From an uncultured Gammaproteobacteria bacterium (GTDB taxonomy: Bacteria > Patescibacteriota > Microgenomatia > Levybacterales > UBA12049), in the NCBI GenBank assembly GCA_964408485.1, contig CAYOZJ010000003.1, forward strand, positions 65,290 to 129,289: a DNA stretch of 64,000 nucleotides. The letters run 5' to 3'. Made by a program: the position numbers and the translations under genes. The notes beneath the pieces were generated by a model that worked only from the letters and a program-made list of their open reading frames with translations, did no database searches and was not told the DNA's origin. Of the stretch, positions 65 to 14,629 are shown piece after piece. Positions within the stretch are counted from its first letter, which is position 1; each line of letters starts with the position of its first letter.

Positions 65-262
65 ATGGAGTCAGAAAAACTTGCAACAGTCATTCTTCAA
101 AAATCCCTTTCACCCAAAACACTTTTTCAGGCAATCCAACAAGAGCTTGCTAGAAAAGCGACAGATACAGCAAAATGGCAAATCCCTCTTATTAAAAATG
201 GGGCAGAAAACGTGGCAAAGGTGGTACTAGCATGCGTATCAACATCCCAAGCAGAAAAGTAA
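65..262 (+). CDS. hypothetical protein; the reading frame is open back to the window edge, so this is probably the 3' part of a longer gene that starts upstream
   Basis: 65-aa ORF in the track; no in-frame stop between position 2 and the first Met at 65; no recognisable motif. Confidence 0.25.
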   Translation: MESEKLATVILQKSLSPKTLFQAIQQELARKATDTAKWQIPLIKNGAENVAKVVLACVSTSQAEK

Positions 263-654
263 AATCTACTCTCCGGGCGCTTTCGCTTATGATAGCGCTT
301 TTTTTGGCAACAATTGTCGCGTGTGCTGTCTGTTTTGTTTTTTTCACTTTTTCAACAATTCGCATTATTTCTCCTCTTATGAGACTCTCCGGGGTAGTAA
401 ATAGTGACAATGCCATTGCGACTGTAAAGAATATGTGTAAAGATACTCACCTTTCCTGTGTAACAGTCGTTGCCCTTCCTGATGGATCTTTACAGATAAC
501 CTTGGATAGTGGAGCAGTTGCTATTCTCTCGACACAAAAAGACCTCAAAAAGCAACTCGCCTCTTTACAACAAGTAGCTTCCCAACTTACAATAAAAGGA
601 AAGCAACTGAAACGAGTAGACTTTCGGTTTGCTCAAGTCGTTGTTAGTTTTTAA
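232..654 (+). CDS. putative cell division protein FtsQ/DivIB-like (short; N-terminal TM helix)
   Basis: Sits directly upstream of ftsA in the classical ftsQ-ftsA-ftsZ order; single hydrophobic TM segment (LMIALFLATIVACAVCFVFF) followed by a soluble domain; no strong motif. Confidence 0.35.
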   Translation: MRINIPSRKVKSTLRALSLMIALFLATIVACAVCFVFFTFSTIRIISPLMRLSGVVNSDNAIATVKNMCKDTHLSCVTVVALPDGSLQITLDSGAVAILSTQKDLKKQLASLQQVASQLTIKGKQLKRVDFRFAQVVVSF

Positions 655-657
655 GAT

Positions 658-1929
658 ATGGCTGATGCAAAAATACTAGTAGGTGTTGATATAGGAAGTT
701 CTAAAATAGTAACGCTTATTGCAAAAGTAGATGACGAATCTGTTAATGTTTTGGGCGTATCAGAAGTAAAATCCAGCGGAATTAAAAAAGGGCAAATTGT
801 TGCCATTGAAGAGGCTGTACAAAGCATTAATGCGTCTCTAGAGTCCTCAGAGCGTATGGCAGGGTACTCCGCAAGTAAAGTTGTTGTCTCCATTGGCGGA
901 TCCCATATAGAATCCCAAAATTCACGTGGCGTTGTTGCGGTTGCTCAACCTGAAGGAGAAATAGCCCAACAAGACGTAACGCGTGTTATTGATGCAGCAA
1001 AAGCAGTAAGTTTTCCAACAAGTAGGGAAATTATTCACATTCTGCCTCGAAGCTTTATTGTTGATGGACAAGAGGGTATTAAAGCGCCTATTGGTATGAC
1101 TGGGGTTAGGCTAGAGGTAGAGACACATTTAATTACCGCTGGGACAACGAGTCTTAAGAATTTAGAAAAAGCGCTCTCTGAAGTTGGAGTAGATGTTGCG
1201 GGTATGGTATTTAATGGATACGCATCAAGTTTGGCAGTGCTCTCTGATACAGAAAAAGAATTAGGAGTTGTGTTGGTAGATATTGGAGCAGGGACAACAG
1301 ATATTGCTATTTATGTTGATGGAGCCTTAGCTCATTCGAGTGTGTTGCCAATTGGCGCGAGACATATTACCAATGATTTAGCAATTGGACTTCGCATCTC
1401 TTTGGAATCTGCAGAAAAACTCAAATTATTTTTAAGTAAGCCCAGAAGAAGATTATCAGAGGAAGATGGGTCACGAATTAGTGATGAAATGGATTTATCG
1501 AGCTTACAGCTGCCAGAAGAATTGAAAAAGGTGAGTTACAAAACACTTGTTGAAGGAATTATGCGACCACGCTTAAATGAAATATTCACTATGGTAGGAC
1601 TAGAGTTAAAGAAGTCAGGATGGGGTGGTCAAACACCGGCTGGTCTTGTTATTACCGGTGGAGGAGCCAAGACAGTTGGTATAGTAGATGCAGCAAAGCG
1701 AAGCCTTGCCATGCCGGTGAGAGTTGGCATTCCATCAGGGCTTAAGGGAATAATAGATGAGGTACAAGATCCAGCATTTTCTACAGCAGTTGGTCTTATT
1801 TTGTACGGCGCAACAGAAAGCCTCGCAACAGGTCCAGGATTTCATTTACCAATTCCCGCACTCAAGGGATTATCGTTTGGAAAATATGGAAAAAAAGTAA
1901 TTGATCTAATAAAATCCTTTATACCCTAA
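658..1929 (+). CDS. ftsA: cell division protein FtsA (actin-like ATPase)
   Basis: N-terminal VGVDIGSSKI phosphate-1 motif, DIGAGTTDIAIY phosphate-2 motif, length 423 aa, position next to ftsZ. Confidence 0.9.
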   Translation: MADAKILVGVDIGSSKIVTLIAKVDDESVNVLGVSEVKSSGIKKGQIVAIEEAVQSINASLESSERMAGYSASKVVVSIGGSHIESQNSRGVVAVAQPEGEIAQQDVTRVIDAAKAVSFPTSREIIHILPRSFIVDGQEGIKAPIGMTGVRLEVETHLITAGTTSLKNLEKALSEVGVDVAGMVFNGYASSLAVLSDTEKELGVVLVDIGAGTTDIAIYVDGALAHSSVLPIGARHITNDLAIGLRISLESAEKLKLFLSKPRRRLSEEDGSRISDEMDLSSLQLPEELKKVSYKTLVEGIMRPRLNEIFTMVGLELKKSGWGGQTPAGLVITGGGAKTVGIVDAAKRSLAMPVRVGIPSGLKGIIDEVQDPAFSTAVGLILYGATESLATGPGFHLPIPALKGLSFGKYGKKVIDLIKSFIP

Positions 1930-2168
1930 TATGAAAAGATCATCACAATCTCACAGACATAGAAGAACTAATCCAACTATGTTAAAGCAATCAGAACCAC
2001 TGGGAGAAGCTAACCTGAAGTTGTAGAAGGAGCTGGGAGTTTTGTTTCGCCATTTGCTTCTCAACTAGGATGGAGTCTTATTGAAGAACATGTTCGAAAA
2101 GGCGGAACGACTAGGCTTCCTAGTGGATACGTCCTTACAAAAGAAAATCTTAGAAATAAGTAATCTTG

Positions 2169-4196
2169 TTAGGTTTTTTCTTGCTCAATTGATTCTCCAA
2201 TGTTAATTGTTTCTGTAGGTGGTTCTACTATAGCTTGATTTCGTTGCCTTCTTCTCTCAGTTTTTGCTGCCCTAATCCTTTCTGTAAGTATTTCTAATTC
2301 TTCAGGCCAACCATTTTCAGGGTTTGGAAACTCTTCCGGATGTGCTTTTACATATCGCCAATTATCACGAAGTGCACGGAACTCATGCGGTTGCGCATCG
2401 TATTCGGCTTGTGTAACTTCATCCGGATTAAGAGGCGCAGATGACGAATTACCATGTTGTATATAATCATCAATGTGATTTATTTCCTCCCTTCCTGCTA
2501 ATAGAGTGCGTGATTTTGGCGTTAGTACCCCATAAGGAACTCGATCTACACGGGATATGAAGTAATAGAGCAGATCAGGCTCCATGAGACAATAATTTTC
2601 AAGGGCTGCGGTGTTTATACTGATAATATTATATTCAGGTACGGCAGCAGCGAGAGAATATCCTAGATCCTGATAGTTAAGCGATGTAAAACTTATTTTG
2701 GGAAGGGTCAGCTCCAGATTCGTTATGTTCAAATCCTCATATCCGCTAATGACACCTTTCATTAAACCAGTTATGTAAAGACCTAACCTCTCCTTAATTA
2801 TTTGCGACAAAACTTCTCTATCCTGCAGCGCATCTTGTTGCTTCTGTGAAAGATCCTGAAACAGGTCGCTTTGATAGAGACGCTCCGGATTTCCAAAGTC
2901 CGGAAAATTATCTGTTATCCAATCTATCCAATTCTCCTGACTAAATTGATAAGGAGACTCGATGGGACTTGTTACATCAACTGCTTCATTTTCAAATATC
3001 AGGTTTGCTGTCTGTGCTGTCGCAGGAATCGTTTCCCCATCTGGGCCGATGCGCGAAGGTAGGTTTTGCCATGTAACAACAGGGACTCCGTTCTCGTCAT
3101 ATTCTATATCTGAGTTGAATTCTGCTTGCTTTTGTTTTCTTCTTTCTGCGATTGCAGCATGGATTCTTGCATTAAGCACTTGTAGTTCGGTAGGTATATC
3201 GCCTCCTGGTGAAGGAAATTCTTCTGGGTGCGTCATGACATATCTTCTTTGGTCACGAAGAGATCGCAATTCATGCAGCTGGGCATCATATTGCGCTAAA
3301 GTTGCTCCTTGTAAATTCAACTCAGCTGGTACTCCGTATTGCATGATGCAGTCAATATGATTCATTTCTTCCCGACCGAATAAGTACATAAGGTTATCCG
3401 GTGTTGTTGCATGTAGCCTTTGTCCATCATGACTAAAAAATGCCGGAATTGTGTCAACGTCTGCAAGACAAAATGCTTCAAACATTGGCGTATTAACAAC
3501 AACTATATTCGAACCAGCAATGTTAAAAACGCCCGCATAACTTGCCTTATCAAAATCCATTGGAGCAAAAACAATTTGTGCAGCAGGTAAGTTGGGGTTA
3601 GTTTTTTCTAAATCATCCCACATATCTGAAATTCCATCTGCAAGAAATGTCATATTCTGTCCCGCACGTTCTTGAAAATTAGTTTTAAGTATCAGATCAT
3701 GGATAACTGATTTTTGTTCATCTGACATACTTTGGTAAGTTTGATCTTTTTCTAAGCGCTCTTCAAGCTGGCCAAACTCTGGAATATTTTCTCCAATCCA
3801 TTGTTCCCATTGTTCAGATGACATATCATATGGTGACTCTTTTGGTACAAGTACATCAAAAGCGTGTTCTTGACCGTCTATGAGCATAATGACTCTTTCA
3901 GCAAAAGCAGTTGAAGGTACTGTTTCGCCATTTGAATCAATTTTAGAAGGCAACTCTCTCAAAACACCTATTGGTATTCCGTCTGCGTCATATCGAATTT
4001 CTGGTTGAGATGGTTGTTCTGGAGAAGTTGGTTGTTGATCATCTATTGGTAAAGATTGTTCCGGGATTTCTTTTTGAGCAAGTGGGGGAGTTTGTTTTGC
4101 AGGCTCATCAACCTTTTTAACCACACTTTGTGAGCCCTCTCCTTTTGTAGGATTTATTTCCTTTGGTATCCCTTCAGATGGTGTTCCTGGCCCCAT
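2169..4196 (-). CDS. hypothetical protein with two tandem ~290-aa homologous halves and a Pro/Gln/Glu-rich N-terminus
   Basis: Long ORF. The two halves share motifs: YD(A/E)(D/N)G(I/V)P, LPS(K/R)I..GET(V/I)P, ESPY..S.E.W..WI, GREE(M/I)NHID, YDAQ.HE.R.LRD..RYV..HPEEFP.P, and a C-terminal ERR(K/R)Q(K/R). No TM segment and no known catalytic motif. Confidence 0.6.
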   Translation of the reverse strand: MGPGTPSEGIPKEINPTKGEGSQSVVKKVDEPAKQTPPLAQKEIPEQSLPIDDQQPTSPEQPSQPEIRYDADGIPIGVLRELPSKIDSNGETVPSTAFAERVIMLIDGQEHAFDVLVPKESPYDMSSEQWEQWIGENIPEFGQLEERLEKDQTYQSMSDEQKSVIHDLILKTNFQERAGQNMTFLADGISDMWDDLEKTNPNLPAAQIVFAPMDFDKASYAGVFNIAGSNIVVVNTPMFEAFCLADVDTIPAFFSHDGQRLHATTPDNLMYLFGREEMNHIDCIMQYGVPAELNLQGATLAQYDAQLHELRSLRDQRRYVMTHPEEFPSPGGDIPTELQVLNARIHAAIAERRKQKQAEFNSDIEYDENGVPVVTWQNLPSRIGPDGETIPATAQTANLIFENEAVDVTSPIESPYQFSQENWIDWITDNFPDFGNPERLYQSDLFQDLSQKQQDALQDREVLSQIIKERLGLYITGLMKGVISGYEDLNITNLELTLPKISFTSLNYQDLGYSLAAAVPEYNIISINTAALENYCLMEPDLLYYFISRVDRVPYGVLTPKSRTLLAGREEINHIDDYIQHGNSSSAPLNPDEVTQAEYDAQPHEFRALRDNWRYVKAHPEEFPNPENGWPEELEILTERIRAAKTERRRQRNQAIVEPPTETINIGESIEQEKT

Positions 4197-4268
4197 ATAA
4201 AAAGTATAACAAATTATTGCCTAAACAACTTGCAAATCGTGTAACCATCTGCTAGGATCACAGGAGTT

Positions 4269-5426
4269 ATGCTTATCAAGCCTCAGACAAATAATTTTGC
4301 AAAAATCCGCGTTGTTGGAGTTGGTGGTGGCGGTACAAATGCCTTGGCATCAATGATTGCCTCCCAAACAATTCAAGGAGTTGATTTTATTGCTGTTAAT
4401 ACAGATGCACAGGCTCTTTTACTCAATCCTGCGGAAGCAAAAGTCCAAATTGGTGAAAAATTAACAAAGGGATTAGGAAGTGGAGGAGATCCAGAAGTTG
4501 GCAAACAAGCAGCAGAGGAGTCTATTGAAAAAATCAAAGATAGCCTTAGAGGATCTGATATGGTTTTCGTTGCTGCTGGTATGGGTGGAGGTACTGGGAC
4601 AGGCGCTGCAGCAATTATCGCAGGTGTTGCAAAAGAAATTGGTGCACTCACTATTGCTGTTGTTACTAAACCATTTGCATTCGAAGGCACACGACGCATG
4701 GTAAATGCAGAAGATGGGATCGAAGCACTAAAAGATAAAGTTGATACGCTTATTGTTATTCCAAATCAGAGAATATTGGATGTTGTAGATAAAAAGGTAA
4801 GCCTTATGGAGGCATTTCGCGTTGCCGATAGTGTGTTAACGCAGGGCGTGCAGGGAATCTCTGATTTAATTACTGTCCCTGGTCTTATTAATGTGGACTT
4901 TGCTGATGTAAGAAGTATCATGACGAATGCTGGGTCATCTCTTATGGGTATTGGTACTGGGACCGGAGAAAATAAAGCACAAGTTGCAGCACGGGCTGCA
5001 GTGAGTAGTCCATTGCTTGAAATAAATATGGAAGGTGCACGGGGAGTCTTATTTAATATTACCGGTGGACCGGATATGTCCATGACAGAAGTCGATGAAG
5101 CAGCACGAATTATTTCTGAGGCTGCAGATCCTGATGCGAATATTATTTTTGGAACAACAATTGATGAAGAATTGCGAGATACAATAAAAATTACGCTTGT
5201 TGCAACAGGATTTGATTCAACACAGCAAAAATTATCTCAATTTGTCCCTGAGTCGTCTCAGTTTGTTAAGCAGCAAGAACCTGTTGAAAAAAGCCCAGAT
5301 GAGCAAGTATTACCGATTGTTCCACAAAATATGCAAAATTCTACAGGGACAACAACTGCGTCAACAGATGACGAACCAAATGAAGATATGTGGGATATTC
5401 CCGCTTTCTTGAGACATAAGAATTAA
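4269..5426 (+). CDS. ftsZ: cell division GTPase FtsZ
   Basis: Tubulin signature [11 protein letters not shown]-terminal [16 protein letters not shown] ribosome-binding site 6 nt upstream of ATG. Confidence 0.95.
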
Positions 5427-7015
5427 TTTTCTAGTAATTTACAATTTTTTCCAACAATTTCCCTCGTTAATCTTTCTCGTTCTTGATTTGTAATATTTTT
5501 CAATTTTCCTGGTACAATTGCTTCCCAGGCATAAATATGAGAAATTGGAACGTGTTTGTATTCTGTGCCAATAGCATCTTTGGGATGGTCGTAGCACACT
5601 TGATTAAATAGTAAGTCTCCATCAAAGGTAAATTGGGGAATATTGTCTCCATTTGGGTCTTTTGTGAGGAGTAAAAAATGAGATCCTCCAAAAAAAGTAA
5701 TACTATTGCCAAGCCAATCATAATTTCCTCGAAAAAAGAAAACGTCATTTGCCTCTCCTCGTGGTACTTGAGAGACAATGGTTTGCAATGCCTGCTCAAC
5801 AAGTACTGTTGAGCGGTATGGTGCTTCCAGAGAGAGAATAGTATTCACTTTGTATATATTCAGCATGATAAAACAGATACATAAGAGTAATAAAATCCAC
5901 TTATTTTTAATTCTACTCAGAATATATGCAACAACAGCGATAAATCCGATTGCCGAAATATAGAGATAGTGGTGTTGTGGATCCATAGGACGTCTTGGCT
6001 CGGCAAGGAAATTGGGTAAATACAGTAAAAATGTCCACAAGATAAAAAATCCAATCACGGCAAAGGTCTGAGATTTTTTCTTAATTCCATATATAAAACT
6101 TGCTACTGCAAAAATAAATGATACTATTCCCCCAACGCCAAAAATCCTTTGATAATCAAGCGTTTCATAGATTGGCTTAGTTGCAGTCATACTGTACAGT
6201 GGATAGATAAACAAATCTGCTATTGTTGCAAAATAATTACCAATATCTTTTGTTTTGCTGAGCGCAAGCATTGGATTGATATGAAGAATTCTTAGAAAGA
6301 CGCTAACCTGTGTATCTCCAATAGGTAAAACAAAATACCATATGGTAAGAAGGGGAATACATATTGCGAGAAAGGCAAAAAGAATAATCGTGAGTTGTCT
6401 TGTTATTTTTGTTTTGTTTTTTGACTTTGGAAAGAGAAAAAGAAATAACGGAATAATAAAAAGGATTGATAGGCCTCGAGCTGGATCAAAAACAATACCA
6501 AGGACAAAAAAGATGATAAATAACCATATTCTTTTTTGCTGTCCTTTTATAGCATCTACTAAGCAAATAAGTGACAAAAGAGCAAAGATTGCAACGAAGG
6601 CAGGGACGTGGAAATTAAATGCATTTACAATATACATTCCAGCGTAGCACGTAGCGAAAAATACTCCTGCTAAAAATCCAGCTAATTTGGAATTTGTTAT
6701 TTTGTATAGTAAAACTCCGGTTAGGAATGCAGTGATTGTTTTGATAGTTATCCCTAGTAATTCCCAAAGTGTAGAATTAAGGCCAAAAAGTCGTACAAAA
6801 ACAAGTGCTTCTAGAGGAGCTGCAGGATGACGAAAATTAAAGAGTTGCGCAAAGGGGTGATACAGAGCATTCCACAAAAAAATATAATCATCTTGAAAAA
6901 AATCAAATGATAATGCTTTCCAAAATGTAAGTAAAGAAAGGAGAAAAAGAAATGAAAAAAATAACAATTGCCTTGCTAATGGATAGTTGTTGAGAAATTG
7001 ATTAAACTTTTTCAT
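5423..7015 (-). CDS. polytopic membrane protein, putative GT-C-type glycosyltransferase (ArnT/PMT-like)
   Basis: 530 aa with more than ten predicted TM helices and an N-terminal DDY motif in the first loop (FFQDDYIF); family assignment is tentative. Confidence 0.45.
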
Positions 7016-7658
7016 ACACTAAAAAACTTTGTTTGCCAAATATTCTCCAAAGAAAGGGAAGTGATAGGTATACTTTAACAAAAAAAGGAGATTTGGGAAA
7101 TTTACTCTTTGTAGTAAATGGTAAAAATCTTTCAATTTTTTTCTGTAACGCAAATCCATTCATACTGAATACTTCTGTGAGCGCTCTGTCATCAATTGGC
7201 GTAATATGGTCAAAAAACATCCAATAGTCCTTTGCACAGTAACGGATATTCGGTTGTAACACTAATACGTTTCCGCCTGGTTTTAGCAGTCTATGGAGTT
7301 CATGGATTGTTGAAAGTATTTCCTCACGAGTAATATGCTCAAAAAAATTACTAATAAATATTTTGTCGACTGAATTATTTTTGAGAGGTATTTTACTTGA
7401 AGAAGACTTTAAAAATTGTACGTTGTTATCTAAATATTTTTTAGAATCTGGATTTATATCGCACGCTAATTTTTTCTTGCAGGAAATATTGTTAATAAAT
7501 TCACCATACCCCGTTGCAACATCGAGAACTATATCCTGAGTATTAATATATTTCTGAAAAAAATTAGAGCAAAGTACTTTCCACAGTGCATTTCTTTGTG
7601 CGTGATCTCTGTCAAAGCGCTGTGCATATAATTTTTTTTCAATTGGTGGCTTGTTCAT
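7002..7658 (-). CDS. class I SAM-dependent methyltransferase
   Basis: Motif I VLDVATGYGEF and motif post-II LLKPGGNVLV. Confidence 0.7.
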   Translation of the reverse strand: MNKPPIEKKLYAQRFDRDHAQRNALWKVLCSNFFQKYINTQDIVLDVATGYGEFINNISCKKKLACDINPDSKKYLDNNVQFLKSSSSKIPLKNNSVDKIFISNFFEHITREEILSTIHELHRLLKPGGNVLVLQPNIRYCAKDYWMFFDHITPIDDRALTEVFSMNGFALQKKIERFLPFTTKSKFPKSPFFVKVYLSLPFLWRIFGKQSFLVYEKV

Positions 7659-7704
7659 GTAACTTTCTGATTGTAGCTATTGGGTAAAGAATTTACCAGA
7701 TGCT

Positions 7705-8280
7705 TTAGTGCATAAAGCTATGGAAAAAAAGAAGCAGATGATTATAATTTCTGTAGATAATATATCCTGTTAGTAAAATAAGTCCTGGAAATAAAACATA
7801 CTTCTCCAAAAACCCTCCTGTTTTTATCCGAAATGCAGTAATCGGCGGTAATCCAAATTTAAATGGAATGGGAAAAAGCCAGGGTACTCCTTCCCTAGTG
7901 AAGCTATCCATAATCAAATGAGAAATATACCCAATCATAAATGCCCACCAGACAATATTCATATTAGTAAGAAGAGATTTACTCATAAGTACCAGGATAA
8001 AGTGTGCGAGAAAGCCAAACAAAACAATGCCAATAATTGAATGCGAAATAAATCGATGCCCTCCCATAAGTGGAGTAAAAAGTCTACTGTAAAATGTTCC
8101 ACCAGGCAATTTATGCCACAGGTCTGCTGTTGGCTGGTCGATGTCTGGAGTAAGTCCGCCAATAAGATTGGCAGTAAAAGCGCAGAGTGCTGTTGCCAGA
8201 CTCATATGAATAATAGGAGATGCAGCAACAATATAGGTAAGTGCAGAAAATGCAGCTAAATCATGAGTACGTCCAGTCAT
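7705..8280 (-). CDS. membrane-bound metal-dependent hydrolase, YdjM/DUF457-like
   Basis: N-terminal MTGRTHD, several TM helices and His-rich loops typical of the YdjM family. Confidence 0.5.
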   Translation of the reverse strand: MTGRTHDLAAFSALTYIVAASPIIHMSLATALCAFTANLIGGLTPDIDQPTADLWHKLPGGTFYSRLFTPLMGGHRFISHSIIGIVLFGFLAHFILVLMSKSLLTNMNIVWWAFMIGYISHLIMDSFTREGVPWLFPIPFKFGLPPITAFRIKTGGFLEKYVLFPGLILLTGYIIYRNYNHLLLFFHSFMH

Positions 8281-9444: not shown

Positions 9445-10200
9445 CTAATTAACCGGATTATTCTGTATACACTGGTTACTACTCGTTATTTGGTCACAAA
9501 TACTAACTGCTGTCCCTAATTTATTTCCCACAGGTCCGTCTGCCCAATCAAAGACTGTCTTTGCATCGACCTGTCGCATATTCACACATCCATGAGACAT
9601 GACATGTCCAAAATTGTCATGCCAATATGCACCGTGTAATCCAAAGTCATGATAAAAGTACATAACATACGGGACATTGGGTAAATCATACGCATCAGCT
9701 CCTTCTCCTCCAGCCATACGCGTTGAAACAAGCTTTTCCCAAATATGAAAATTACCAGTTGGGGTTTTGTTCCATTTTCCTGTTGATACAAGTGTTTTGA
9801 AAAAAAGCGTTGTGCCTTGGTAGGCATAAAGCGTTTGTGCTGCTAAATCAACATAAATATGCTTTTCTCCTGACGCTGCACCCAAGACCGGTTGGTAGGC
9901 AATTTGTTGTGTCTCATCTATTTTTGGTGGAATCACTTTTTTCCCCTGAAACATACCAATAGCATTATTTTCTATTTTTACAGACAAATCTGATGTACAG
10001 GATTTTGAGTTAGCACAGGTTGTATTTTGTGCTGCATTCAGGAAATACGAGGTACCAGCAAAGAAAAGAAGAGCAATGCTAAAAAATAAAAAATATCTTG
10101 TTATCAAAAAGAAAAATCCTCGCCTTTTATTACTTGGTGTCTTTATAGAACCTTTCCTTGACTTTTTTAGCATATATCCAGCGTATGAAGAATAGTGCAA
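9445..10200 (-). CDS. L,D-transpeptidase (YkuD domain)
   Basis: N-terminal TM anchor; catalytic region HGAYWHDNFGHVMSHGCVNM carrying the conserved His and Cys of the YkuD fold. Confidence 0.75.
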   Translation of the reverse strand: MHYSSYAGYMLKKSRKGSIKTPSNKRRGFFFLITRYFLFFSIALLFFAGTSYFLNAAQNTTCANSKSCTSDLSVKIENNAIGMFQGKKVIPPKIDETQQIAYQPVLGAASGEKHIYVDLAAQTLYAYQGTTLFFKTLVSTGKWNKTPTGNFHIWEKLVSTRMAGGEGADAYDLPNVPYVMYFYHDFGLHGAYWHDNFGHVMSHGCVNMRQVDAKTVFDWADGPVGNKLGTAVSICDQITSSNQCIQNNPVN

Positions 10201-10244
10201 ATTTGCAAGAGGGAGTTCCGGATCTGTACCATCAAGACAAGAAA

Positions 10245-10332
10245 CTTGTCATTCTGGCACTCGATTCAGTACTTGCTTCGCCGAAGCGGCGCTTTCCAGA
10301 ATCTGGATTCCTGCCTTCGCAGGAATGACACT
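10245..10332. repeat. MITE-like palindromic repeat, GTCATTC...GAATGAC family, copy R1
   Basis: Reads gtcattctggcac...ccagaatctggattcctgccttcgcaggaatgacac; nested hairpins; shares the cttcgccgaagcgg motif with copy R5. Confidence 0.6.
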
Positions 10333-10358
10333 TGTTTTTCAAGGGATAAGTTCCGGAG

Positions 10359-11555
10359 TTAGGTTTTCTGGATAATATATATTTTTCCAGCTTTATCATC
10401 TGAAACATATAAATTTCCTTTGCTGTCAAAAGTAACATCCGCTGGTCTTCCAAGTGCTGCGCCTGCAAGATTACTTTGTAAAAAGCCGGTAAGAAAATCC
10501 TCGGACCCTGTAATCGTATTTCCTTGTACAGTAAGTCGTACTACTTTAAATCCTATTGGCGTTGAGCGGTTCCAGTCTCCGTGATACGCAACAAATAAGC
10601 TTCCTTGCCAACTTTTGGGAAATTGCGAACTTTCGATAAAGGTTAATCCTAACGGTGCGGAATGAGCAGGAACTTGATAAATAGGAGCAAGAGTCTGCGA
10701 GCAGTCATAGTTGCTTTTATCAAAGTTAGTATCATGAACTTTATCTCCATAACAATTAGGCCAGCCGTAGTTTTTTCCAGATGAAAGTATATTTATCTCA
10801 TCGGGAGGAAGATTGTCTCCTAAATAATCCCGTCCCATTTCTGTGTCCCACACAGCGCCATTCGTTGGATTAAGAGCAAGAAATGCAGCATTGCGAAGTC
10901 CTGTTGCAAAAACTTTTGGACTGTCCCCGTTGGCATTGGAAATAAGAACCGATCCGCCTGTTGTTGCAGGTTCTCTACAAACATTGCAGGTAGAACCAAG
11001 AGAAACATAAAGGCTGCCATTTTTATCAAAAACAAGCGTACGGTTGTTGTGGTCATTATTTCCAGGGAGAGAAAAAAGATCCTTGTCTTTTGTTGCCAGT
11101 TGAGAATTTTCATCCCAATTGTACCTAACAACTTTTGTTGTGTCAGCGATAAAGAGTTGGCCATTGTAAAATACTAGTCCGTGAACATGTGGTTCGTTGC
11201 TAATGATTTGCTTTGCAATATCTGCGACACCATCATTATTTTTATCGGGTAGAGCATAGACATGATTTGTAGAAGGACTAGAGACAAGTAACGTACCATC
11301 TTTCGTAAATTCCATATCACGAGCATTAGGAACATCACCAAAAACATGAATGCTATACCCATCTGGTAATTTAAAGGGAATTGTTGGCAATGATCCTTTG
11401 GAAATAGTTGCAGATTGGTTAGGAGCAGGTGTTATTGTAGGGTAGGCGGGAAGTAATTGCGTGGGAATACCCGAATGAAAATAAAGGTTTGCCCCAAAAT
11501 AGATAAAAATAACTACAGCAACAAAAATTCCAAGAAATGCTGTTATGCGTTTCAC
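10359..11555 (-). CDS. PQQ-dependent soluble sugar (glucose/sorbosone) dehydrogenase-like beta-propeller protein
   Basis: N-terminal TM/signal segment, NYGWP motif, HGLVFYNGQLFIADT and other propeller-blade motifs of the GSDH family. Confidence 0.7.
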   Translation of the reverse strand: MKRITAFLGIFVAVVIFIYFGANLYFHSGIPTQLLPAYPTITPAPNQSATISKGSLPTIPFKLPDGYSIHVFGDVPNARDMEFTKDGTLLVSSPSTNHVYALPDKNNDGVADIAKQIISNEPHVHGLVFYNGQLFIADTTKVVRYNWDENSQLATKDKDLFSLPGNNDHNNRTLVFDKNGSLYVSLGSTCNVCREPATTGGSVLISNANGDSPKVFATGLRNAAFLALNPTNGAVWDTEMGRDYLGDNLPPDEINILSSGKNYGWPNCYGDKVHDTNFDKSNYDCSQTLAPIYQVPAHSAPLGLTFIESSQFPKSWQGSLFVAYHGDWNRSTPIGFKVVRLTVQGNTITGSEDFLTGFLQSNLAGAALGRPADVTFDSKGNLYVSDDKAGKIYIIQKT

Positions 11556-11587
11556 TTTCTTAGTATATCACTGGCATATAAGAAATT

Positions 11588-11596
11588 TGCTATAAT
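11588..11596 (+). promoter_or_regulatory. extended -10 element (TGcTATAAT) 6 nt upstream of the ATG; predicted leaderless transcript
   Basis: tttgctataatcgttgcATG. Confidence 0.4.
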
Positions 11597-11602
11597 CGTT
11601 GC

Positions 11603-11881
11603 ATGATTACTCTCATTGCAATTGTTGGTTTTTTGACCACAACGCTTTCCATACTGGTTAAATTAGTTGGATTCCCAGATCAAATCAGAAAGAATTTTCA
11701 AAGAAAATCCACAGAAGGAATTTCTACTGCTTTTTATATTCTCTCATTTACTGTTTATCTGCTTTGGACGTTGTATGGATTTTTACAACATGATTGGGTT
11801 GTAATGCTCGGACAAGGTTTAGGAATTATTACTACCGGAGCAATCGTTTATCAAATCTATTTGTATAAAGAAAAGAAATAA
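11603..11881 (+). CDS. SemiSWEET-like (PQ-loop / MtN3) small sugar transporter
   Basis: 92 aa, three TM helices, motif FPDQIRKNFQRKSTEGIS resembling the PQ-loop and K-S-T-E-G-I-S signature of SemiSWEETs. Confidence 0.55.
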   Translation: MITLIAIVGFLTTTLSILVKLVGFPDQIRKNFQRKSTEGISTAFYILSFTVYLLWTLYGFLQHDWVVMLGQGLGIITTGAIVYQIYLYKEKK

Positions 11882-11882
11882 T

Positions 11883-12503
11883 ATGATTCCACACAGAATT
11901 GTTGCCATTGGAGCAAGCACATTTTTTGGTCTGTATGATGAGGATCACTTAGGTGGCTATATTGGAAGACTCAAGATGTGGCATGAAAGCTAACCCATAG
12001 ACAATGAAGTGTATAACCTAGGCGTTAGTAGAGAAAGTGCTGGTGAGTCAACAACAGAATTGTTGAAAAGAATTATAGTGGAAGCAAAAGTTAGAGAACC
12101 AAATCTTATTCTCCTTACATCAGGCATTAATGACATTCGTCGCATTGGAGGAAAAGATAATCCACCGCGGACGTCCCGTGATGAATTTGAAAAAAATATT
12201 CATGACATGATTGCGCAGACGCGAAGCGTGGTGCAAGAGATTCTTTTTATTAGTCCATGCCAGATTACAGATAAAGAAAGTAGCAAGGGAGACTTTTTTC
12301 TTAATACCGATTTAAAAGCGTATTCAGATATTACTAAGCGTGTTTGCGAAGAAGAAAAAGTGCCTTACCTTGATATCTTTCAGGAATGGGAAAATAAAGA
12401 CTACACAAGTCTTCTATGTCCAGATGGGGTTCATCCCAATAGCAAGGGGTACGAAGCTGTTTTTGAAAATCTTAAGACATTTCTCCTTTCTCTTTACGCA
12501 TAA
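11883..12503 (+). pseudogene. SGNH/GDSL-family hydrolase interrupted by an in-frame TAA at 11991-11993
   Basis: Block I IVAIGASTFFG (11883-11990) and block II NLGVSRESAGESTT, block III GINDIR and block V DGVHPNSKG (12009-12503) lie in the same frame, separated by a single TAA. Confidence 0.55.
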
Positions 12504-12515
12504 TCTTGCGCTTGC

Positions 12516-13172
12516 TTGCTTGAGTTTTTAATACTTCCACTCTATACTGCGGCTGCTATGGAACGGTTGCCTACAACCATGATAAAAGTAGGCGAAACAA
12601 TTCGCCACGAAGCAGGTATTGTGGTAAGTGCTGTTAAAAGACTTCGCAGACGTATTGCTCCAGGGAGGACAGCGTTTCACGAAGCAGCACACATAGAAGC
12701 TTCTCAACTTGATGAAGGTATAGATAGAGCAACTATTGTTGGTACATCAGAATATAACGGTGCAACATGGCCTCGTCGTATGACAGCAACAAGCGCTATG
12801 GCTGCTGCTGCGCTGGATATGGACGGAACAGGATGGGACGAATTTCTTACCGCACATATTTTGCATGTTAATCCAGATGGTGCAAAAAGCACAGTGCTTT
12901 CTATTCTGGCTGGAAGACAAGATTACATGTGGGCAGTTGCTGAAATATTGGAAGAAAAAAAGACTATTGGACAAGAAGATGTTAATAGAGCCCATGAGCA
13001 GGTGGATAACGAAAGACGGGGGGTCTGGCAAGTGGATGTGATGGTAAAGAACAAAGACGGAACAACATTCATTCACTCAACAGAGTCAGAAAATAATAAC
13101 GTTATGGTGCCAGGAGAATGGGTTGTACTGCATATACCAGAATCAAGAAAAGAAGAACAACAGCTTGCATAA
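12516..13172 (+). CDS. putative zinc metallopeptidase, standalone FtsH-protease-domain-like (HExxH)
   Basis: TAFHEAAHI motif matches the FtsH M41 zinc site (aYHEaGHa); no AAA domain and no TM segment; higher GC than neighbours. Confidence 0.35.
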   Translation: MLEFLILPLYTAAAMERLPTTMIKVGETIRHEAGIVVSAVKRLRRRIAPGRTAFHEAAHIEASQLDEGIDRATIVGTSEYNGATWPRRMTATSAMAAAALDMDGTGWDEFLTAHILHVNPDGAKSTVLSILAGRQDYMWAVAEILEEKKTIGQEDVNRAHEQVDNERRGVWQVDVMVKNKDGTTFIHSTESENNNVMVPGEWVVLHIPESRKEEQQLA

Positions 13173-13200
13173 GAATCCTGTAGTATGATAAACTATAAAT

Positions 13201-13440
13201 ATGACAACTAAAAATAAAGAGCTGCCATGGTTATCGCGTTTTGTAAAAGATATCTTTACGAATGCATCTCGAAGACGGGCTGCGGAGGAGTTTCATGCGC
13301 TTTTACATGCAGATCCTCAAAATGATTTTGAAAGAGATTTAATAAGTAGGCAACGGCCTGCAACTGTCAGAAGATTAGGTTTGAGTACTGCACAACAAAT
13401 GGAAGATGATCATATAGCGCAAGGTTTACATAGCTATTAA
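13201..13440 (+). CDS. hypothetical small protein
   Basis: 79-aa ORF only. Confidence 0.2.
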   Translation: MTTKNKELPWLSRFVKDIFTNASRRRAAEEFHALLHADPQNDFERDLISRQRPATVRRLGLSTAQQMEDDHIAQGLHSY

Positions 13441-13447
13441 AGGAAAT

Positions 13448-14266
13448 TTATTCTACTACTTTTCGTAGGCTTTCCACTTCTTTTTTTGACAATTCTCTGT
13501 ATTCTCCTCGTTTTAAACTTCCTAATTTGAGTGGACCAAAGGCAATGCGTTGTAAATCAAGAAGTTGTATTCCCATTTCTTCACACATCCGTCGAATTTG
13601 TCTATTCCGTCCTTCGTGAAGGGTTATGTCTAGGGTTGTTTTTTCCTTGTCATTCCCGCGCAGGCGGGAATCCAGATGGTCTATTTTTGTTTTAGAACCT
13701 GGATCCCGCATCAAGTGCGGGATGACACGTTGTGAGTTCGGGATGACTGTTTTAACGACAGTCACTTCTGCAGGCATTGTTATTCCATCTTCTAAAATAA
13801 CACCTATGCGAAGTTGCTCAAGTTGTCCTTTTGTTGGTTGTCCTGCAACAAGAATTCGGTACAGTTTGGGTACATGGTAGCGAGGATGAATAAGCTGATG
13901 AGTTAACTCTCCATCATTTGTTAACAAAACAAGCCCATGAGAATCTTTATCCAGTCTTCCAACAGGATAAATTCTGTAGGGAGTATCAATAAGAGAAGTC
14001 ACTGTGTCACGCGCAAATTCGTCTGCAGTTGAGGAAATAATGCCAATTGGTTTATTTAATATATAGTAAACAAAGCCAGGCTTTTGTACTTTTTCACCAT
14101 TTATCAAAACAAGTTGCTTACTACCTACCCGGATTCCAGATTCTGTTACTCGTTTGCCGTCAATAGTAACGTCATTATTTTTCAAAAATGACTTTACCCC
14201 TCGCCGGGAAATTATCCCAGCATTAGCTAAAAATTTATCCAAGCGGATTTTTATATCTTGCTGCAC
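13448..14266 (-). CDS. RluB/RsuA-family pseudouridine synthase (S4 domain plus catalytic domain) carrying a 35-aa in-frame insertion
   Basis: S4 region RLDKFLANAGIISRR, catalytic PVGRLDKDSHGLVLLTNDG, C-terminal LHEGRNRQIRRMCE; GTG start; the insertion IPNSQRVIPHLMRDPGSKTKIDHLDSRLRGNDKEK is encoded by repeat copy R2. Confidence 0.8.
   Translation of the reverse strand: MQQDIKIRLDKFLANAGIISRRGVKSFLKNNDVTIDGKRVTESGIRVGSKQLVLINGEKVQKPGFVYYILNKPIGIISSTADEFARDTVTSLIDTPYRIYPVGRLDKDSHGLVLLTNDGELTHQLIHPRYHVPKLYRILVAGQPTKGQLEQLRIGVILEDGITMPAEVTVVKTVIPNSQRVIPHLMRDPGSKTKIDHLDSRLRGNDKEKTTLDITLHEGRNRQIRRMCEEMGIQLLDLQRIAFGPLKLGSLKRGEYRELSKKEVESLRKVVE
13649..13747. repeat. MITE-like palindromic repeat copy R2, lying in-frame inside the pseudouridine synthase gene
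   Basis: Reads gtcattcccgcgcaggcgggaatccagatgg...cctggatcccgcatcaagtgcgggatgacacgttgtgagttcgggatgac; three hairpins; the insertion spans codons 175-209. Confidence 0.65.
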
Positions 14267-14272
14267 TGCAAT

Positions 14273-14278
14273 ATTATA
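14273..14278 (-). promoter_or_regulatory. -10 box TATAAT 6 nt upstream of the GTG start of the pseudouridine synthase gene (leaderless layout)
   Basis: Minus-strand sequence ctgcTATAATattgcaGTG. Confidence 0.35.
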
Positions 14279-14326
14279 GCAGGTTAGCCTTGCTTAAGAA
14301 CTAATATTATCCTATAATAGGAAAAT

Positions 14327-14590
14327 ATGACAGACAGAAAAGCTGCTAAAAATCATATTGAAACTGGTTTGACAGATGTTTTGGGCAGATCGCCTTCTCA
14401 TGAAGAGCAAATAGCGGGAGAGGGATATCATCATTTCGTTCAGCATGGCGAAACACAAGCAAGAAGACACAGAAGAACAAGAGAGGTATATCGGATTGCA
14501 GCTCGAGAACACGCCAAAAGAGTTCTTCCTCAAGATGCAATAGACCATTTGGATAGTATACATAGTCCAGATCATTTTTTTGAGGATTAA
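14327..14590 (+). CDS. hypothetical small protein
   Basis: 87-aa ORF preceded by TATAATaggaaaat; no motif. Confidence 0.3.
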   Translation: MTDRKAAKNHIETGLTDVLGRSPSHEEQIAGEGYHHFVQHGETQARRHRRTREVYRIAAREHAKRVLPQDAIDHLDSIHSPDHFFED

Positions 14591-14629
14591 TAAGCGCTAT
14601 TTGGTTATTTTTGCTATACTAGCCATAAC

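Follow-up and report, generated by a model that had tools for sequence, protein, structure and literature searches.

Gluzincins have as their defining elements a backing helix, a sheet of three strands, an active-site helix with the HExxH motif and a glutamate helix, and their third-ligand glutamate lies three residues before a small amino acid in the Ser/Gly-turn, which gives an ExxA motif (PMC6414381). Substitution of the first histidine of HExxH by glutamate is over-represented in zincin families (PMC3650047), and the minimal zincins or minigluzincins (Acel_2062/DUF1025, and proabylysin and projannalysin of the provisional family 'M95') are small scaffolds in which no activity was detected (PMC3890501). 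Here we compare with these systems a gene found between ftsA and ftsZ in a bacterium of the Candidate Phyla Radiation (CPR) near Levybacteria. It lies in a stretch of 64,000 nucleotides (nt) of contig CAYOZJ010000003.1 (assembly GCA_964408485.1, positions 65,290 to 129,289), the whole of which we call the window. An open reading frame (ORF) listing of the window showed the gene, hereafter the orphan gene, to be an intact minus-strand ORF of 675 amino acids (aa) with an ATG start (2169..4196).

The orphan protein and its EExxH motif

An earlier examination of the letters alone (the sequence-only reading) had described an antisense gene between ftsA and ftsZ, whose product consists of two homologous halves of ~290 aa that follow a low-complexity Pro/Gln/Glu-rich N-terminus, share four motifs, and come with neither a transmembrane (TM) segment nor a signal peptide. 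This description was borne out in each of its parts. First, the ORF listing and Pfam matches on both flanks confirmed the antisense position. Second, self-alignment of the 76 kDa protein (isoelectric point 4.45) paired residues 66-356 with 363-652 at 39% identity (about 39-40%) over 295 columns (E=3e-67), which put the half coordinates of the earlier examination, 3132-4001 and 2253-3131, right within about 12 nt, and each of the four motifs occurs once per half. Third, P, Q, E and S make up 52% of the 65 N-terminal residues. Fourth, no TM segment was found by hydropathy (maximal Kyte-Doolittle 19-residue mean 1.32), and we deduce that there is no signal peptide because the N-terminus is hydrophilic. 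A short acidic tail follows the second repeat. The features of the protein are as follows.

4002..4196, minus strand: N-terminal low-complexity region (aa 1-65), probably disordered
3129..4001, minus strand: repeat 1 (aa 66-356), from self-alignment and the structural model
3351..3377, minus strand: GREEMNHID (aa 274-282), which holds the variant zincin motif E276-E277-x-x-H280 midway along a long helix of repeat 1
3252..3290, minus strand: YDAQLHELRSLRD (aa 303-315), Glu helix of repeat 1, with E309 as putative third metal ligand and S312 as small Ser/Gly-turn residue
2241..3110, minus strand: repeat 2 (aa 363-652), with the architecture of repeat 1 and every family-invariant residue kept
2469..2495, minus strand: GREEINHID (aa 568-576), repeat 2 counterpart of the EExxH motif of repeat 1
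2364..2402, minus strand: YDAQPHEFRALRD (aa 599-611), Glu helix and ExxA motif of repeat 2
aa 318 (repeat 1) and aa 614 (repeat 2): RYVMTHPEEFPSP and RYVKAHPEEFPNP, respectively
aa 351 (repeat 1) and aa 647 (repeat 2): C-terminal basic motif, ERRKQK and ERRRQR, respectively

An AlphaFold2 (AF2) model of aa 62-360 (m09f11d18f5e3), built with an alignment of 16 family sequences, reached a predicted local distance difference test score (pLDDT) of 92.2 and a predicted template-modelling (pTM) score of 0.89, and superseded a run with the two halves alone (pLDDT 44). In unit numbering (to which 61 is added for the full-protein position), the N-terminal part of the model consists of four strands (5-57) and several helices (66-136) that include a conserved W..W helix and a long helix (113-136), while the core comprises five short strands (146-202), a long helix (205-226) and a further helix (246-261), and a basic helix (275-298) forms the C-terminus. 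All 16 family sequences share G213, E216, H219, E248 and L252. At position 215, 15 of them have Glu and one (P0007) has His, giving a canonical HETDH, and position 251, three residues after E248, is occupied by Ala (11), Ser (3) or Gly (2). The EExxH motif lies in the middle of helix 205-226 and E248 on the next long helix (246-261), with a spacing of 28-39 residues between H219 and E248 in the family. On two consecutive helices that follow a small beta-sheet, both halves carry the pattern G-x-[E/H]-E-x-x-H...E-x-x-[A/S/G]-L of the family, and the putative site is present twice in one polypeptide (E276/E277/H280/E309 and E570/E571/H574/E605). The statement in the sequence-only reading that the protein has no known catalytic signature therefore needs amending, as the conserved GxEExxH...ExxA is a recognisable variant of the gluzincin signature.

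The likeness to gluzincins (MEROPS clan MA(E)) extends to the order of the elements, which in the model appears to be the same: a backing helix, a small sheet, a helix with x-E-x-x-H and a Glu helix with A, S or G three residues later. Moreover, P0007 carries the canonical HExxH, and E248 and the ExxA-type position are found in all 16 sequences. The family differs from gluzincins in that the first His ligand is Glu in 15/16 members, including both copies here, in that neither sequence nor profile comparisons detected a likeness to any MA-clan family and fold comparison yielded no significant one, and in that each orphan copy has, in addition, a beta-hairpin subdomain at its N-terminus and a helical insertion; the orphan protein alone has the tandem architecture. 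On balance, we lean towards the view that the orphan domain works like a gluzincin-type metal-dependent hydrolase, one that is not assigned to any MEROPS family.

Several results weigh against this assignment. A Foldseek search with the confident model returned no match at E <= 0.001 in PDB or BFVD. The best sizeable matches were all zincins (IrrE N-terminal-like, SprT-like and ACE2), which speaks for the assignment, but none of them was significant; that to the IrrE N-terminal-like protein of Bacillus phage PBS1 had a probability of 0.87 and TM-scores of 0.34/0.46 over 190 columns at a non-significant E=0.19. Pfam searches with all 16 members found no peptidase family, nor did NCBIfam and PDB searches with single sequences and profiles, and hhalign against an alignment of a genuine zincin, YgjP/DUF45, taken from the relatives' loci gave a probability of 0.1. 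The canonical HExxH is itself absent from the orphan protein, both copies being E-E-x-x-H (EEMNH and EEINH). Finally, catalytic zinc is not typically bound by a site made up of two carboxylates and a single imidazole. An 'EExxH' motif was not mentioned in the literature searched.

The same observations bear on the alternative that the protein is a non-catalytic scaffold or binding protein with a new or degenerate zincin-like fold, in which the Glu and His residues are structural or bind a ligand without hydrolysis. The lack of a significant fold or profile match to any enzyme and the replacement of the first zinc-ligand His in 15/16 members speak for this alternative, many zincin families combine a substituted motif with a lack of known activity (PMC3650047), and the minimal gluzincins solved so far had no detectable activity (PMC3890501). 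We nevertheless consider it unlikely: sequences that are otherwise only ~20% identical strictly keep the Glu of the general base, the second His, the Glu of the third ligand and the small residue at the turn, as expected of an active site, and Glu is a competent metal ligand.

Two other readings of the conserved segment were discarded. A PDB profile match to the mitochondrial ribosomal protein mS27 ('REEIDHAEY...YDAQD') had E=0.75 and was treated as chance, and interpretation of G-R-E-E-M-N-H as a HEPN Rx4-6H motif was rejected on the grounds that the Arg is Val or Ile in 12/14 other members.

Among described zincins, ImmA/IrrE (peptidase M78) provides the best sizeable Foldseek match, and both are small, cytoplasmic, single-domain proteins. 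The HExxH-to-Glu ligand spacing of IrrE is ~27 residues, near the 28-31 of most members here, and an ImmR/DdrO-type helix-turn-helix (HTH) repressor is the usual partner of ImmA/IrrE. No Peptidase_M78 (PF06114) match was obtained with any of the 16 members, and no HTH gene adjoins them in the window or in L081-L086, the family loci inspected. The minigluzincins probably share with the family a small soluble zincin-like scaffold with a three-stranded sheet and few helices, but they keep HExxH and measure about 110 aa, whereas here a conserved core of about 150 aa is set in units of about 220-290 aa; PDB profile and Foldseek searches brought up no similarity to them.

If the gluzincin-like reading is correct, each unit would bind one metal through Glu, His and Glu, with the first Glu replacing the His that is normally the first ligand. 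The general base would be the second Glu of EExxH, the second ligand the His and the third E309 or E605, and the edge of the small sheet would bind an extended substrate. Single-domain relatives would be monomers or homodimers, and the tandem protein would form a covalent pseudo-dimer with two intact sites, whose disordered tail may tether it to a partner.

Elsewhere in the window, a 218-aa protein (12516-13172, plus strand) with 'AFHEAAHIE...' recalls the protease-domain motif of FtsH (M41) and has no Pfam match; judged by this motif, it may be a stand-alone divergent zincin.

A very rare protein family

Searches for relatives revealed a family of extreme rarity. In a word-indexed search of 5.8 billion proteins the orphan protein (P0001) matched only itself, and a cluster look-up placed it in a one-member cluster from a single 145-kb NCBI contig. 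A peptide-pattern scan of the species genomes gave no family match. Exhaustive HMMER comparison of a two-half profile with 1.84 billion cluster representatives added 14 further proteins (E = 3e-8 to 1e-3), which are weak matches, all single-domain and 167-334 aa long. Each of the 10 relatives looked up is a single-sequence cluster; nine occur on one contig each and P0009 on three. The word-indexed search with the family alignment retrieved P0015 only, and the word index evidently misses the family. A degenerate-motif scan at the DNA level contributed one more copy, split or frameshifted, from a Joint Genome Institute (JGI) metagenome (L082): this sole JGI-metagenome copy is spread over two plus-strand reading frames (1325-1774 and 1753-2124) and represents either a frameshifted pseudogene or a sequencing error. 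No Pfam, NCBIfam, PHROGs, PADLOC or PDB family accounts for the whole protein, these searches having returned noise only.

The family members lie in unrelated genomic contexts. P0015 lies after dnaG-rpoD, P0008 is antisense between rpsP-khpA-trmD and rnc-acpP-nusB-rpmF, and P0005 is situated between cysS/PIG-L and a restriction-modification island (Mrr and type IIG). P0009 is upstream of DUF1905 and baeRF genes, the L082 copy lies between a glycosyltransferase and a sugar epimerase/decarboxylase, and P0003 is near a 2'-5' RNA ligase-like gene. In the contexts inspected there is no conserved partner gene beside family members, and none of these adjoins ftsA or ftsZ. At the P0015 locus (L081), a large serine recombinase and an HTH_17 excisionase-like gene occupy 5882-7759 and the DNA downstream, 2 kb from P0015, and are followed by unannotated genes; this region beside the dnaG-rpoD operon is probably an integrated element.

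The distribution raises the question of whether the orphan gene, for instance as a toxin, effector or defence gene, is carried by a selfish or conflict-related element that passes from genome to genome and inserts opportunistically. The extremely patchy occurrence as singletons speaks for this explanation, as do the restriction-modification island that P0005 abuts, the recombinase and excisionase-like genes near P0015, and the apparently fast divergence of the family, the members of which are 18-26% identical to the window's first repeat. By contrast, PADLOC returned 0 families, PHROGs matches stayed below threshold (E >= 0.0046, with no stretch passing on its own), and no antitoxin or immunity partner is conserved beside family members. 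Likewise, tblastn searches of 50,697 phage records and 72,556 plasmids and two degenerate-motif scans of 2.9 million viral contigs found no family member. Taken with the evidence from the insertion site given below, these results lead us to regard conflict cargo as a rather doubtful explanation.

The ftsA-ftsZ interval and the origin of the insertion

For comparison of the locus, we collected 80 loci through an FtsA search of 185,579 species genomes (FtsA 57-88% identical), each with 10 kb on either side of ftsA where the contig allows. The FtsA relatives come from metagenome-assembled genomes (MAGs) of Levybacteria, Gottesmanbacteria and the 'Patescibacteria group'. Public records give the name 'uncultured Gammaproteobacteria bacterium' to many of the MAG contigs with FtsA 66-79% identical and 'Candidatus Eisenbacteria' to the closest, L001; as taxonomic labels these names are probably mistaken. 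The features of the window's ftsA-ftsZ interval are as follows.

658..1929, plus strand: ftsA, left flank (Pfam FtsA PF14450 and SHS2_FTSA PF02491), product 88% identical to that of L001
1930..2168, no strand: non-coding spacer of 239 nt on which the 3' ends of ftsA and the orphan gene converge, inserted DNA without counterpart in relatives
2169..4196, minus strand: orphan gene, encoding a probably disordered N-terminus and two homologous domains (76 kDa, acidic, cytoplasmic)
4203..4211, minus strand: extended -10-like element TGTTATACT, 6 nt upstream of the orphan ATG, with no Shine-Dalgarno
4230..4258, plus strand: ftsZ-proximal promoter-like element TTGCAA-17-TAGGAT with TG extended -10, the right-hand limit of the insertion
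4269..5426, plus strand: ftsZ, right flank (Pfam Tubulin PF00091 and FtsZ_C PF12327), product 88.6% identical to that of L001

A family member is present in 0/80 of the relatives' loci (tblastn and family hidden Markov model [HMM], ±10 kb of ftsA); it counts against reading this as absence from the genomes that the relatives were sampled around ftsA only, a copy elsewhere being excluded only by the global protein searches. The ftsA-ftsZ gap measures 15-264 nt in 70/74 loci that retain ftsZ and 59 nt in the nearest relative, L001 (FtsA 88% identical). Nucleotide homology to L001, as determined by blastn, ends at 1932, at the ftsA stop codon, and that to L002-L004 ends earlier, within ftsA; it resumes at 4247 for L002-L004 and at the ftsZ start (4269) for L001. 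The extra DNA of ~2.3 kb thus corresponds to the orphan gene and the 239-nt spacer, with the ftsZ promoter-like element just outside. Judged by these boundaries, the orphan gene is a sporadic lineage-specific insertion. A single insertion of an already duplicated gene is the most parsimonious scenario because many independent clean losses would otherwise be required: the duplicated gene would have landed in a stretch of roughly 20 nt between the ftsA stop codon and the ftsZ promoter, in one Levybacteria-like lineage.

The half-versus-half alignment that the sequence-only reading had proposed as a means of dating the duplication places it before the split from L001. At four-fold degenerate sites the halves are 23% identical, compared to 31% expected at random, and are therefore saturated, while their proteins are 40% identical. 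Synonymous sites of ftsA and ftsZ remain unsaturated between the window and L001 (46-49% identical versus 33% expected). Because the halves are saturated and the ftsA/ftsZ comparison is not, the duplication is older than the split from L001, which lacks the gene. The halves are 39-40% identical to each other versus 18-26% to any other family member, and an N-terminal beta-hairpin region and a helical insertion are common to both halves and found in no other member; as mutually closest sequences with private shared regions, they point to a duplication within this protein's own lineage. On the basis that protein identity persists at 40% where four-fold sites are saturated, non-synonymous change has been strongly constrained, and by this measure the orphan is a genuine gene under purifying selection.

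Downstream of the orphan stop codon, 2027-2056 repeats 30 nt of the gene (3905-3934) at 77% identity, with a core of 14 nt that match exactly, and in the ORF frame it encodes 'NGET', which resembles the start of each repeat unit. It may be a relic of a third repeat unit, but we set this reading aside because the translated similarity is insignificant (E about 0.9). The ORFs of the spacer are of 20-41 aa only, and a terminator or structured RNA between the 3' ends of ftsA and the orphan gene was rejected after a terminator scan found no terminator-like hairpin in 1930..2168 and fold z-scores came to -0.7 and -1.8.

The sequence-only reading had offered a selfish insertion as one explanation of the locus. 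The insertion itself is supported by the breaks in homology; the selfish character is not, in view of the lack of repeats, of a recombinase, and of phage, plasmid or defence matches, and of the host-like codon usage. Specifically, no inverted or direct repeats flank 1930-4229, and the only ORF over 41 aa within these limits is the orphan gene. Its G+C content at third codon positions (GC3) is 0.277 versus a host mean of 0.281, and its codon-usage distance from pooled host genes (0.52) is inside the host range (mean 0.78).

The orphan gene and ftsZ are divergent, with start codons 72 nt apart. On the orphan side, TGTTATACT without a Shine-Dalgarno suggests a leaderless transcript; a generic promoter scan reported no minus-strand promoter at 4203..4211. 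A start-codon survey also identified an alternative GTG start at codon 25 (nt 4124) preceded by AAGGAGAGGG, and translation may begin there instead. On the ftsZ side, an element of the form TTGCAA-17-TA(G/C)nAT with TG extended -10, which in the window is a consensus match and not a mapped promoter, leaves only 10-15 nt to the ftsZ ATG. Of the 56 relatives with ftsZ retained and FtsA >= 60% identical, 55 have it at this position, and Gottesmanbacteria-type loci, which are more distant, largely lack it. That a non-coding stretch is so well conserved speaks for autonomous transcription of ftsZ, and the element at 4230-4258 points to an ftsZ transcript that, in this clade, is autonomous and has almost no leader. 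With ftsZ apparently driven by its own promoter, uncoupling from ftsA should not silence it, and the insertion was probably tolerated because ftsZ appears to have its own promoter.

Consistent with a permissive site, unrelated inserts occupy the same interval in L004, L005, L034, L045, L050, L056 and L078. ORFs of 118-131 aa without Pfam match are located in L004 (3413-3802), L034 (11286-11642) and L045 (11564-11959), and in L023 and L056 ftsZ is displaced beyond several genes downstream of ftsA. L050 holds restriction-modification genes (10144-14629) and L078 a transposase-like minus-strand ORF (11233-12375), both of which agree with the conflict-cargo explanation discussed above. L005 contains another ORFan, a 346-aa antisense ORF (1475-2515, minus strand). 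It was dismissed as an orthologue of the orphan gene: BLASTP gave E=0.19 over the motif region, the family HMM gave no score and hhalign a probability of 0.1, and the likeness was put down to chance since 47/500 shuffles reach its Smith-Waterman score. Given the repeated disruption of the interval within the clade, a place among the division genes says little about function here, as the unrelated contexts of the other family members confirm.

This consideration affects the other explanation put forward in the sequence-only reading, an accessory factor of division or the cytoskeleton that is specific to the lineage. Such a factor could be, for instance, a protease or an adaptor with FtsZ or FtsA as its target, which was recruited to the cluster and shares a divergent control region of 72 nt with ftsZ. 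The location between ftsA and ftsZ with divergent start regions 72 nt apart would fit such a factor, as would an intact gene under purifying selection whose host-like codon usage argues against a recent foreign import. Yet the gene is missing from all 80 relatives, including one with an 88%-identical FtsA, family members in other organisms never lie beside ftsA or ftsZ, unrelated inserts make the position little informative, and Pfam and NCBIfam searches found no homology to a known division protein family. The accessory-factor proposal is thus unsupported, and we consider it very improbable. The sequence-only reading had itself named two observations that would tell against it: absence from the ftsA-ftsZ interval of relatives, which is what we found in all 80 examined, and membership in a well-known unrelated family, which applies weakly, as the family merely resembles gluzincin metallopeptidases and is not well known. 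Comparison with the FtsZ/FtsA accessory proteins SepF, ZapA and FtsQ leads to the same result: they have only a location by ftsZ in common with the orphan protein, and differ from it in showing no homology, no conserved position and the opposite orientation. The literature searched on division clusters contained nothing relevant to CPR.

It would strain belief still further that the orphan is the founding example of an unrecognised CPR-restricted metallohydrolase family with an E-E-x-x-H/E-x-x-A site and possibly a non-zinc metal, the tandem version of which was captured divergently from ftsZ as a dedicated FtsZ/FtsA regulator (e.g. a trimming or sequestering protease or an adaptor); if true, this would be a new way in which ultra-small episymbiotic bacteria control their division.

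Upstream of ftsA, a gene at 232-654 (plus strand) encodes a very short FtsQ/DivIB-like protein of 140 aa (PF03799, E=0.003, below the curated cut-off). It is 25-51% identical among the relatives and evolves much faster than ftsA and ftsZ.

Implications

The near-universal adjacency of ftsA and ftsZ has been repeatedly broken in Levybacteria-type Patescibacteria, for which an autonomous ftsZ promoter would be a simple explanation. The locus also cautions against annotation through guilt by association, since a position in the division cluster does not count here as evidence for a role in division. Hypothetical proteins abound in CPR genomes, and a specialist would not be greatly surprised by another. 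The family is nonetheless unrepresented in Pfam, NCBIfam, PHROGs, PADLOC and PDB and numbers about 15 clusters among 1.84 billion representatives. A confident predicted structure without significant match in PDB or BFVD, together with a conserved site in which Glu stands for His, makes it a tractable target for the study of alternative metal sites in zincin-like scaffolds.

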